From assembly GCA_963665095.1 (NCBI GenBank), contig OY762069.1, positions 4,192,001-4,256,000 on the forward strand: a stretch of DNA of 64,000 bases. The letters run 5' to 3'. The first letter of the stretch is position 1; each line of letters starts with the position of its first letter. Positions 3,501-55,156 of this stretch are shown one piece after another. The DNA comes from an uncultured Desulfobacter sp. GTDB taxonomy: Bacteria; Desulfobacterota; Desulfobacteria; Desulfobacterales; Desulfobacteraceae. The notes beneath the pieces were generated by a model. That model saw only the letters and a program-made list of their open reading frames with translations. It was not told where the DNA came from and ran no database searches. The position numbers were made by a program, and so were the translations under genes.

Positions 3501-3748
3501 GACCTACACATAGTTTATCAAGCAACACTATACATTAATTTATAGTTTATTATTGGGTAGTTATGCATAGCTACAAAATTTGTAGGTTGTCATATATATT
3601 CTCTTTAAGTATATTCTCCAAAGATTTTACTTTGACAAACCACCTCCAAGATGTGAACAGATATGAACTTGCTTTTTGCTTCCCAAAGTATAAAAAAATA
3701 TCAGAAGTTTGAAATATGCCCCCGCCCTGTCACAGGCACAAAATGTTG

Positions 3749-4191
3749 GTACGCCACGAGGGTGCAGGATACCAGCGGGTGAAAGTTCCGCCCGGGAAAT
3801 TATCCGTTCATCCCGGTAGCGACCCAGACAGTGGGATAGTCAGGCCTTCCTGCTGAAGCTCTGGGGACAGATGTAAGCCTACAGGGCTTCAGCGACCTGG
3901 CAGGCCGCAACGTGAGTGAACCTTGAGCAGGCCTCGAAAGGACAGTCGTGGATGCCGACCCGCCCAATATTCGGGGAAGGCCGAAGCGGAACAGGGATGT
4001 AACTGATCCACTCGAGTCGATCCACCATGGAAATGAGGGCAGCATGTAAGGAAGGTATCCTGGGTAACGTGGACGTGTGCCTTAAGGTGAAGTCAGTCGG
4101 AAAGCCGGATGCGGTAGCTCCGCACGTCCGGTTTGATGAGCAGGGACAGGAAACGGAACGGACTTGTCACCGAGCTTGCCCTTGACCTCTC
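3749..4191 (+). mobile_element. ORF-less, internally deleted group II intron (DI + end of DIV + DV + DVI)
   Basis: 5' end GTACG (variant of GUGCG). DI closing helices CCACG/CGTGG and CAGGATACC/GGTATCCTG. DV AAGCCGGATGCGG..CCGCACGTCCGGTTT at 4102-4134 with the AGC triad. Degenerate DVI. EBS1 CAATAT pairs with flank ATGTTG. Confidence 0.88.
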
Positions 4192-4260
4192 TGAATAAAA
4201 ACAGGAGCCGTTGAACGTGATGAACTGCATTGTTCCGGCTGGAATCGTTAAGGAGAAAGA

Positions 4261-4368
4261 ATGGCTGAAAAAATTCTTCGGGTAGCACTTATCGGATGCG
4301 GCAGGCTTGCTGTCAAACATATCAAGACCACAACCAAGTGGTCTTTCCCTTTTTTTAAAAATCTTTAG
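4261..4368 (+). pseudogene. Truncated duplicate of the 5' end of the Gfo/Idh/MocA gene at 6485
   Basis: Reads MAEKILRVALIGCGRLAVKHIKTTTK versus MAEKILRAALIGCGRIAVKHIKAITK. The RBS region is also similar. It then diverges and stops. Confidence 0.85.
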
Positions 4369-6355: not shown

Positions 6356-6484
6356 CATTTTCCACTCGCCTTAAATTGGAACTGACATCTTTATTTTGAG
6401 CTACTGTCTACTCATGTGATAAAAAGAACGCAGGTATACTCAAAAGCGCTGGATTGTACTTACCGGAATCATCAAGGGGAAAAA

Positions 6485-7612
6485 ATGGCAGAAAAAATTC
6501 TTCGGGCAGCACTTATCGGATGCGGCCGGATCGCGGTCAAACACATTAAGGCCATAACAAAGAAAGGCAGCGGGTTCCTGCTCTGTGCTATGGCAGACAC
6601 AGACCCAAAGGCTTTCGACAGATTGCTCGATACCTGCAGACTGTCCGGCAAAAGGAAGCATAAGTTAAAGGACACCGTCAAAGCCTATACAGATTATCAT
6701 GAGATGCTTCAACAGGAGCAACCTGATATCGCCGCCATAACTGTTCCCTCGGGGCTGCATTACGTCATCGGAAAGGCTGCATTGCTCAGCGGTGCCCATA
6801 TTCTCCTTGAAAAACCCATGAGCATGAAAATAAGTGAAGCCAGAGAGCTGGTTGCTATTTCCGAACAGGCGAACAGAGCCATTGCCATGGGCCATATCTT
6901 TCGATATTTTCCTGTTGTGGGCAATCTGCAAAAGGATGTGGCCGCCGGCCGGTTCGGTAAAATCAGCCACGGATCGGTCATTGTACGCTGGGGACATGAC
7001 CAGGCCTATTACGACGAAACCGCCTGGCGCGGCACATGGAAAGGCGACGGCGGCGTGCTGATGAACCAGTCCGTTCACGCCATTGATCTTCTCTGCTGGC
7101 TCATGAACGGCCGCGCAACTGCGGCAAATGCCATGATAGCCAGACGGTCCCATGACATAGAGGCGGAAGATATTGCCCTGGGAACCCTCAAACTTGACAC
7201 CGGAGCGCTATGCCAGATTGAAGGGACAACCAATTCACCTGCCAACGATCATGAGGCGGCTTTTTACCTGCTTGGAGACAAAGGCAGTTTCCGGATCGGT
7301 ATCCGCAGAGGCAGGCCATATTTTGATATCAGAATTAACGGTAAAAAGAAAAACTTTGAATACTTTTTGAAAGAGATCCGGGCAAAAGGTCTTCTGGGGC
7401 TTCTTTCTCTGGCAAATCCCCATGCCGGTATATATGCCGACTTAAAATACGCCATTCTCAGCGGGAGAGCGCCCATTGCCGATGCAAAATCAGGGATGAT
7501 GTCTGTTGAGTCTGTTCTGGCTTTATATCTGTCGGCAAAGGAAAAGAGGCAGATAGAGATCCCTTTGGCAAAGGATTTCTCATCCCGGGAGATGTCGGAA
7601 TATATTTTCTGA
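6485..7612 (+). CDS. Gfo/Idh/MocA family oxidoreductase (WbpB-like sugar dehydrogenase)
   Basis: GCGRIA Rossmann motif, EKP motif and WRGTWKGDGGVLMNQSVH. Confidence 0.9.
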   Translation: MAEKILRAALIGCGRIAVKHIKAITKKGSGFLLCAMADTDPKAFDRLLDTCRLSGKRKHKLKDTVKAYTDYHEMLQQEQPDIAAITVPSGLHYVIGKAALLSGAHILLEKPMSMKISEARELVAISEQANRAIAMGHIFRYFPVVGNLQKDVAAGRFGKISHGSVIVRWGHDQAYYDETAWRGTWKGDGGVLMNQSVHAIDLLCWLMNGRATAANAMIARRSHDIEAEDIALGTLKLDTGALCQIEGTTNSPANDHEAAFYLLGDKGSFRIGIRRGRPYFDIRINGKKKNFEYFLKEIRAKGLLGLLSLANPHAGIYADLKYAILSGRAPIADAKSGMMSVESVLALYLSAKEKRQIEIPLAKDFSSREMSEYIF

Positions 7613-54003: not shown

Positions 54004-54430
54004 TTATTGAATAAACTTGACGTGCTCCAAAACTGTATCCGGGATATTGATGCGTAGCCGTTTCGAAGTCGTCTCATTGATCAATAATACTGACGGATTT
54101 TTTTGAACAGGAATAGACCCCAGGCTTTCACCTTTGCGGTGGCGGTCAATGATACGGGCGGCGCTTTTTCCAGAGGCATAGTAGTCAAACCTCGTTGCCA
54201 TGAATATGCCGCCCTTTACCATATTCATACTCGGGCCAACACTCGGAATTTTCGCTTGGGTCAAATACCGGGCAATGAGTTCAGCCTGAGAGCCCAAAAA
54301 GCTGTCCGGCGGTAAAAAAACAATATCAATATCGCTTGACGCTTCCGTAATTTTTTTCAAATTGGTTTATAGTATTTCAACCGTTGGCGTGCGAACATCA
54401 ATCACATTAATTCCCCTGTCTTTGGCAATT
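54004..54430 (-). pseudogene. 3' fragment of an ABC_sub_bind-type substrate-binding protein
   Basis: Reads IAKDRGINVIDVRTPTVEIL-stop(54367-54369)-TNLKK..PPDSF..GKSAARIID..IPV..LLIN..INIP. The 5' part is replaced by the intron fragment. Confidence 0.7.
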
Positions 54431-54713
54431 ACCCCGGTGGATCGAAACGAGTGGATCGGTTACATCCCCGTTCCGCTTCGGCCTTCCCCGAATATAGGGC
54501 GGGTCGGCATCCACGACTGCCCTTTCGAGGCCTGCTCAAGGTTCACTCACGTTGCGGCCTGCCAGGTTGCAAAAGCCCTATAGGCTTACATCTGTCCCCA
54601 GAGCTTCAGCAGGAAGGTCTCCCTATCCCACTGTCTGGGTCGCTACCGGGATGAACCGAAAATTTCCCGGGCGGAACTTTCATCCGCGGGTATCCTGCGC
54701 CCTCGTGGCGCAT
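54428..54713 (-). mobile_element. 5' fragment (most of domain I) of a group II intron
   Basis: 286 nt colinear without indels with 3749-4034 (23 mismatches by hand count, about 92% identical). Starts ATGCG. EBS1 CTATAT pairs with flank ATATAG. Confidence 0.88.
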
Positions 54714-55156
54714 CTATATGTTGTGGCGTCAGGAGTCAAGTGCATAGCCCCGTTATTTTTTTTATATAACCCCCCAGTAATTATACCCAATTGATTTATA
54801 AAACACTTTACACAGACCACGCATCTCCTGGCCGGTATGCAGCAGCAATGGGGACTAACTTTCCTGATCAATAACAAGCCCCCCCGATTGACTTCCGCAC
54901 GGATATAAATATATCTATCAGGGATAGACATTTCCGTTTTATTTCAGGGTTAGTACCTGCTTTAACGCACGATTCCAGCCGAACCCGTATAAAAGTATCC
55001 TCTTAAATCATCTGTCATATTTCCATTTGATTAAAAAACCTCAGCGCCTTGATTCCTGATCCGGATTAGGGTTTTATGTACAAATAAACCGTTTGATCTG
55101 GTATAAGAATTGACATCTGAAACTTGAGGCTTGAAAAGTCATAAAGGAAGCGCACC

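Follow-up and report, generated by a model that had tools for sequence, protein, structure and literature searches.

The window, by which we mean the whole stretch of 64,000 nucleotides of uncultured Desulfobacter sp. DNA that was analysed, contains two segments that match the Rfam model RF02003 (group-II-D1D4-4) with 84.6 and 86.5 bits, the gathering threshold being 49. Five related intron copies were found in the genome, one of which is full length, and the two copies of the window can be placed beside it as follows.

3749..4191, plus strand: group II intron copy 1, from BLAST against the full-length copy, RF02003 match at 3773-3915
54428..54713, minus strand: group II intron copy 2, a 5' fragment comprising domain I and slightly more, from BLAST, RF02003 match at 54547-54689
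G000:C1:337334-339248: full-length intron copy, 1,915 nt, starting with GTGCG and ending with CTAC

The full-length copy codes for a 440-aa reverse transcriptase/maturase with RVT_1 and GIIM domains (TIGR04416 at 365 bits versus a cut-off of 300), in which domain searches found no endonuclease domain. This gene is missing in both window copies: compared with the full-length copy, copy 1 has lost 1,471 nt of domain IV at 4072/4073, that is, its open reading frame has been deleted. Copy 1 furthermore begins with GTACG and is also altered at its 3' end, and copy 2, whose intron start is at 54713 (minus strand), has A rather than G as its first base. In view of these altered first bases, it is likely that both window copies are dead remnants. 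On the other hand, the full-length intron has moved recently, because contigs of the public sequencing runs X3 and X11 skip exactly its 1,915 nt (GT..AC), which confirms both junctions and demonstrates that an empty allele exists. A joint that omits 1,472 nt, at the position where copy 1 has its deletion, was also found in a contig of run X5 (on L149 1337-2810). No splice junction was detected in the RNA runs X19 and X20, which cover the stretch partially. Four of the five genomic copies are on the predicted lagging-strand template, a strand bias that is weak. Homologs were gathered via the intron sequence or its protein, never via the flank; the nearest named ones are from deltaproteobacterial assemblies, and a phylum-wide search of 400 genomes added two further introns, one with the target box described below (81% identity) and one without it (72%). 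Just past copy 1, a 76-bp duplicate of the beginning of the oxidoreductase gene was noted (window 4225-4300 versus 6449-6524, 84% identical).

The 3' part of the intron is preserved in copy 1.

4102..4134, plus strand: domain V with AGC triad and 5-nt loop, from fold and sequence
4138..4191, plus strand: domain VI (long) and 3' splice site, from fold and from RF00029 on full-length homologs

Full-length copies match RF02005 and RF00029 (the latter with 37-40 bits, gathering threshold 40), and a domain I, a domain V with its triad, a domain VI, the reverse transcriptase/maturase and the empty allele together identify a mobile group II intron. The 5-nt domain V loop and the long domain VI (the latter a IIF feature) have been described for classes IIE and IIF in passages of PMC3753933. 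Structural features thus suggest a group IIB-like intron of E/F type, and the label is 'IIB-like' because the EBS2-IBS2 pairing of group IIB was not found. Group IIC was considered and rejected, as EBS1 pairs over 5-7 nt and the palindromic target spans the cut instead of forming an upstream hairpin.

Recognition of the exons can be followed in both copies, and the relevant elements are listed here.

3965..3970, plus strand: EBS1 of copy 1, CAATAT, pairing with ATGTTG at 3743-3748 with one G-U
54492..54497, minus strand: EBS1 of copy 2, CTATAT, pairing with ATATAG at 54719-54714
4033..4033, plus strand: predicted EBS3 (A) for +1 of the 3' exon, from covariation at intron nt 285
3945..3951, plus strand: EBS2 candidate, rejected, GTCGTGG, its last four bases in an internal helix with 4020-4025

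An earlier note on this DNA had located both EBS1 loops and their partners, and its coordinates and both pairings proved correct. Its further proposal that EBS1 variants are matched to variants of the site is borne out by the six EBS1 variants present among 18 copies of the close clade: when tabulated against the flank, eight duplexes are perfect, eight have one G-U and two have one mismatch, giving full pairing in 16/18 if G-U is counted. For the wider family, 83 introns whose domain I is complete were compared: flank positions -1 to -5 are paired with nt 217-221 in 99-100% of weighted rows including G-U (82-100% under strict pairing), and EBS1 and flank covary with a mutual information of 1.25-1.62 bits. 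This covariation is real, yet it is textbook group II intron biology. Nucleotide 285 is the best covarying column for position +1 (80% Watson-Crick, 69 introns), which corresponds to the EBS3-IBS3 pairing of group IIB.

Besides EBS1, no 4-bp helix to 20 flank bases stands out over the 83 introns. The view expressed in the earlier note that EBS2 is lacking holds in that no EBS2 covaries with the target, but a partial complement to the left half of the target, GTCGTGG, is present in domain I. It could be argued that this is a hidden EBS2 (GUYGUGG, nt 198-204), pairing with -13 to -7 by strand exchange with the internal helix: it is located just before the EBS1 stem, as in IIB introns, it complements CCACAAY at 6-7 of 7 positions, and passages of PMC3753933 indicate that splicing of E/F introns does not need their apparent EBS2 pairings, which may have a role in homing. 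However, in three introns (L054, L055 and L057) a G-to-A change in this motif is compensated by a change of its internal partner in the RNA, but the target does not follow and keeps C at -12, and the covariation expected of such a pairing is absent over the 83 introns, though lineage-specific registers could escape this analysis. A hidden EBS2 is accordingly regarded as very improbable.

The target itself extends beyond the paired bases, and in the window it comprises three segments, the scores of which refer, as do all bits and genome frequencies per site, to a motif derived from nrdD promoters that is introduced below.

3736..3748, plus strand: left 13 nt of the copy 1 target palindrome, with IBS1 at 3743-3748 (12.2 bits, genome frequency 2e-5)
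54714..54726, minus strand: left 13 nt of the copy 2 target palindrome, with IBS1 at 54719-54714 (15.3 bits, frequency 1e-6)
4192..4193, plus strand: TG of the 3' exon, completing the copy 1 palindrome; the DNA beyond differs from the IS91 inner arm

The consensus, CACwAyATrTwG|TG, is a 14-letter palindrome that is cut 2 nt from its right end and is used on both strands. The CACAA that the earlier note saw in both flanks is indeed conserved, but it is part of a larger box, namely the whole palindrome running into the TG of the 3' exon; this TG is present in 8 of the 11 sites with a known 3' flank, and T at +1 in 10 of them. To score the 5' side, 28 distinct sites of the close clade were used, with omission of the duplicates L025, L017 and L152, of loci without a 5' end, of the distant introns L022, L034 and L079 (which are without the box) and of three metagenome matches obtained via the flank pattern. 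Counted by eye from the site table, CAC[AT]A occupies positions -12 to -8 in 18/28 sites, A is found at -8 in 27/28 and C at -10 in 26/28, whereas only 33 of 7,867 IBS1+T-like genomic sites (0.42%) carry CAC[AT]A. The left half of the palindrome is therefore selected, although no RNA pairing accounts for it. It is also kept at four sites where full pairing with the right half is impossible (L030, L055, L058 and L151), a result that favours sequence readout over a hairpin. Across the genome the excess of boxes is modest: 12 versus 5-7 in local shuffles at 16 bits, and 7 versus 1-2 at 17 bits.

The explanation that we favour, and regard as somewhat probable, is that the intron pairs EBS1 with the six bases before the cut, that its protein likely reads the left half, and that the intron rides several transposon families. 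Under this explanation, the intron RNA would pair with -6 to -1 through EBS1 and with +1 through the predicted EBS3, the intron-encoded protein would read C-12, A-11, C-10 and A-8, and EBS1 might drift among variants that still fit the degenerate box. As no endonuclease domain was found, cDNA synthesis would be primed from replication forks or rolling-circle DNA. According to passages of PMC8643678, a small number of distal 5' bases are read by the RT protein in other introns. Elsewhere in the family, branches have different motifs at the same upstream distance, ATGTC or TARCCCG, as would be expected if each protein had its own preference. Protein readout is burdened, in turn, by the fact that a 440-aa protein without a clear DNA-binding domain would have to do the reading. 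As regards the distant introns themselves (L060-L131), their ATGTC or TARCCCG is located 11-16 nt upstream, often in hairpin-like repeats, and in some of these branches pairing would be possible between ATGTC-type flanks and the loop that follows the kappa motif; we take their targets to resemble attC.

The earlier note considered the two insertions to be independent events at a conserved motif, and named a shared larger duplicated segment as the finding that would speak against this. The flanks support independence, since they match the ends of two different and unrelated IS families.

3655..3658, minus strand: GTTC, predicted target tetranucleotide of the IS91-type element, from sequence
3659..3748, minus strand: outer arm of an IS91-family end (predicted oriIS), from terminal motif to palindrome core, from similarity
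54714..54752, minus strand: left end of an IS1595-family element, predicted -35 at 54739-54734, rest of the element missing

For the same reason, the TATAAAAAAA tract and TATGC, which the note listed as features shared further upstream, are coincidental: the flanks stem from unrelated elements, the A tract of copy 2 is outside its element, and neither feature is conserved at other sites.

Along 79 nt, the copy 1 flank is 91% identical to an IS91-type element end from a relative; four other places in the genome match it at 84%. In the window, the outer 90 bp of this element remain, and the inner arm and transposase are missing. Relatives contain an upstream Y2 HUH transposase (NF033538 above cut-off in L162 and L167), a subterminal palindrome and a GTTC-like neighbour; GTTC has been given as the target of IS801/IS1294 in passages of PMC13181058. 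The palindrome in these relatives is perfect, with arms of 23-28 bp, and is found about 150-170 bp past the transposase stop; the terminal motif lies 75-76 bp from its centre and is mostly followed by GT (9/11 rows). Its arms differ between elements and its core is nearly fixed, and it is this core that the intron occupies, in both orientations. A survey of IS91 ends (L157, L159, L160, L162-L168, L172, L173, L183, L184 and L186) revealed perfect palindromes of 46-56 bp whose arms vary freely among elements with the symmetry around the core remaining perfect. The box was rejected as a general IS91 feature, as it is not near 13/14 Y2 transposase matches in the genome; rather, it marks one IS91 subfamily (14/30 loci), and it is absent from a plasmid IS91 homolog at 52% identity. 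A search of viral contigs gave no IS91 locus.

With palindromes of this kind, target recognition might depend on a hairpin or cruciform that the single-stranded DNA folds into, in the way that group IIC introns use terminators and attC sites. The perfect IS91 arms, variable in sequence, would agree with this idea, as would the longer imperfect arms of several other sites and the single-stranded circles that IS91 elements form according to passages of PMC13181058. However, a stem would bury IBS1 and +1, both of which are needed for RNA pairing, the IS1595 site and several others have a short imperfect palindrome only, and the left half is kept without pairing, so that we consider recognition of a hairpin quite improbable.

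Copy 2 inserted into a different type of host. Its flank is matched in 11/150 genomes of the family and, with the box excluded, is 97% identical over 32 nt to an IS1595 end; at empty sites the transposase start follows (NF033547 above cut-off). Five copies with inverted ends and flanking duplications are present in G024, whereas the window keeps the left 39 bp only. Intact relatives have the box at either end, at a distance of 24 bp from the tip; that of the left end overlaps a predicted promoter (TTGACT-17-TAGTAT), which a sigma-70 scan found in the G481 variant and missed in that of G024. Copy 2 splits the predicted -10 hexamer of this transposase promoter, and the intron may thereby silence the IS1595 element that it has entered. 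As in the case of IS91, the box cannot be taken as general to the family, since it was not found upstream in 13/21 loci (which have other end types or are partial), and it is absent from 6/6 IS1595 homologs on plasmids of Proteobacteria and Actinobacteria. At L315 (G547:C67), a pair of IS1595 elements abut, and some 75 bp separate their boxes.

The full-length copy, in turn, sits in a third repeat ('family A', approximately 140 bp). This repeat (L288-L309; G000:C1:3354690-3354840, 1703238, 2467268, 6006722) has a single central box and occurs in 10/24 genomes of the genus; at one locus only it directly follows an integron-integrase fragment, and a copy with a partly deleted box is found just upstream of the nrdJ promoter (G000 3649500-3649586). 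Loose contig ends show that two additional families of repeated boxes in this genome have also received insertions. With the box excluded, 13/28 flanks could be matched, ten of them to IS91 ends, one to IS1595 and two to the third repeat; as the other 15/28 match none of the three reference sets, the statement that most sites are in mobile elements is not supported. The domain I tree is poorly resolved (4/18 branches well supported), and the ten IS91 sites are perhaps not ten independent events. Within these bounds, the favoured explanation of EBS1 pairing with protein readout implies that the intron hides in, and would be carried by, the ends of IS91-family, IS1595-family and other repeats.

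Sites that are chimeric or halved, with the break at the box, were observed at G000:C1:1963760, 3754630 and 5630050 and from window position 4192 onward. They include a junction, at the core, between arms from two IS91 subfamilies, an outer arm with a foreign right half, and copy 1 itself, which is followed by unrelated DNA. The box may be a rearrangement hotspot. A rival reading is that another host protein, such as an IHF-like bender, binds the box, or that an unknown recombinase uses it as a crossover point, and that the intron is drawn to the complex, the NrdR likeness being incidental. Repeat homology often begins or ends at the box, the site at 1963760 joins two IS91 subfamilies at the core, and the box is lineage-restricted, given its absence from the plasmid homologs mentioned above. 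CAA-N4-TTG, furthermore, is the core of the IHF consensus; on the other hand, the intron sites are without what we take to be the three 5' bases of that consensus. Also weighing against this alternative are the symmetry of the sites and their variation at the same positions as nrd boxes, the lack of a recombinase gene regularly adjacent to them, and the possibility that the breakpoints stem from recombination between intron copies. Overall, we rate it as rather unlikely.

The likeness to NrdR boxes, to which the earlier note drew attention, was assessed with a motif based on nrdD promoters alone: 14 of them were used for sampling, for which no seed was given, and 29 for refinement. The genome has a gene for NrdR, and in its nrdD and nrdJ promoters the boxes come in pairs with a spacing of about 32 bp. 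The nrdD-derived motif turned out to be the same palindrome as the intron target: the genome frequency is at most 1e-3 for each of the 28 intron sites and at most 4.1e-5 for 25 of them, the median scores are 14.1-15.0 bits for element boxes versus 15.9 for nrdD boxes, and the intron sites are symmetric, show the 16-bp palindrome of an NrdR operator and differ from one another where nrd boxes do too. Nevertheless, a partner box at 30-32 or 41-43 bp was found at 0/28 intron sites (best 4.9 bits; the downstream side could be tested for 11) and, at NrdR spacing, for 0/43 empty boxes of mobile or repeated elements, compared with 49/53 nrdD boxes, a comparison that is partly circular, the motif having been trained on those promoters. 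No nrd domains were found among the flanking ORFs scanned (65 + 59), and 0/31 nrd loci contain an intron. The notion that the targets are nrd operators was consequently rejected on these grounds. The box is thus a real match to the nrdD motif of these organisms, as had been suspected, but the sites are not canonical operators as far as their sequence tells, and the description of them as ordinary intergenic repressor operators does not hold. Two paired boxes 32 bp apart, at G000:C1:2499241 and 5916610 in a duplicated 940-bp non-nrd segment, are possible extra NrdR targets.

A more far-reaching possibility is that NrdR binds single boxes, or two joined element ends, thereby coupling the activity of the transposons to the supply of dNTPs, and that the intron particle is guided to NrdR-bound or bent DNA. 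All intron sites and element boxes score well on the nrdD motif, NrdR is available in the genome, the sharing of one box by unrelated transposases points to a host protein, and the IS1595 box overlaps the predicted -10, as NrdR boxes do in passages of PMC4409342. Yet such guidance is at odds with the missing partner boxes and with the nrd loci free of introns. Moreover, passages of PMC12051234 report that NrdR of Escherichia coli and Streptomyces coelicolor was unable to bind one box, and single boxes had no NrdR effect in the transcriptomes described in passages of 10.1101/2025.03.28.645925, although an effect at a single topA box is mentioned in parts of an earlier study (PMC4409342). We consider guidance by NrdR unlikely. 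The same doubtful standing applies to the related idea that unrelated elements recruited single NrdR boxes, so that their movement would follow dNTP supply, and that the intron aims at the repressor's box; if true, this would represent a fourth group II specificity, for a host-protein site, with timed reverse transcription and a ride on every box-carrying element. In the favoured explanation of EBS1 pairing with protein readout, NrdR would not be required for insertion, and insertions at paired nrd-promoter boxes may be lost to selection or blocked. Among the titles and abstracts searched, from a library with few subscription papers, none connects NrdR boxes with group II introns or with the ends of IS elements.

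Comparison with known systems helps to define what is particular about this intron. Like class E/F introns, it has a small ribozyme, a 5-nt domain V loop, a long domain VI, recognition dominated by EBS1, and an RT with maturase; unlike the E/F examples in the passages of PMC3753933, which have an apparent EBS2-IBS2, no covarying EBS2 is present here, and those passages give no target comparable to this palindrome. With group IIC it shares the absence of EBS2, the absence of a detected endonuclease and a target recurring at many unrelated loci (PMC4424553, in part), but its EBS1 is 6-7 nt long and IIB-like, its triad is AGC, and its conserved target includes IBS1 with no upstream hairpin. Similar to RmInt1, it is an endonuclease-minus intron in mobile elements (passages of PMC7306698 and PMC8643678), and parts of PMC7306698 describe mobile elements as hiding places that introns are known to exploit; introns of the RmInt1 type, however, use EBS1 and EBS2 at a homing site, whereas here a single short non-coding motif, usable on either strand, gives access to further repeats in addition to two or more unrelated IS families. 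The box resembles NrdR operators in having the same 16-bp palindromic consensus as the paired nrdD and nrdJ boxes and, in IS1595, in overlapping a predicted promoter, and differs from them in being single and away from nrd genes, the likeness being known from sequence. Class E and CL1 introns in attC arrays are likewise IIB introns at the sites of other mobile systems, but the cases in the passages of PMC7923331 are fragments or single cases, and these passages report no motif common to IS families.

The relevant passages of PMC4424553 distinguish three kinds of target for which bacterial group II introns are specific, namely homing sites, terminators and attC sites. Here, the address is a short palindrome common to unrelated transposon ends and read without EBS2. 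The proposal of an unusual targeting strategy can be upheld as far as this target is concerned, which is new, but not for the EBS1/IBS1 matching: what is new is the unusual address, and the exon pairing itself is ordinary. The natural EBS1 variants chart which changes of the target are tolerated, and the intron offers a compact natural system for how an endonuclease-minus intron protein reads DNA. Furthermore, the IS91 and IS1595 elements with perfect single NrdR-type boxes make the action of NrdR on one box testable on a promoter. For the intron, a palindromic address that can be hit on either strand and is spread by several transposon families would be a means to avoid genes and to gain carriers.
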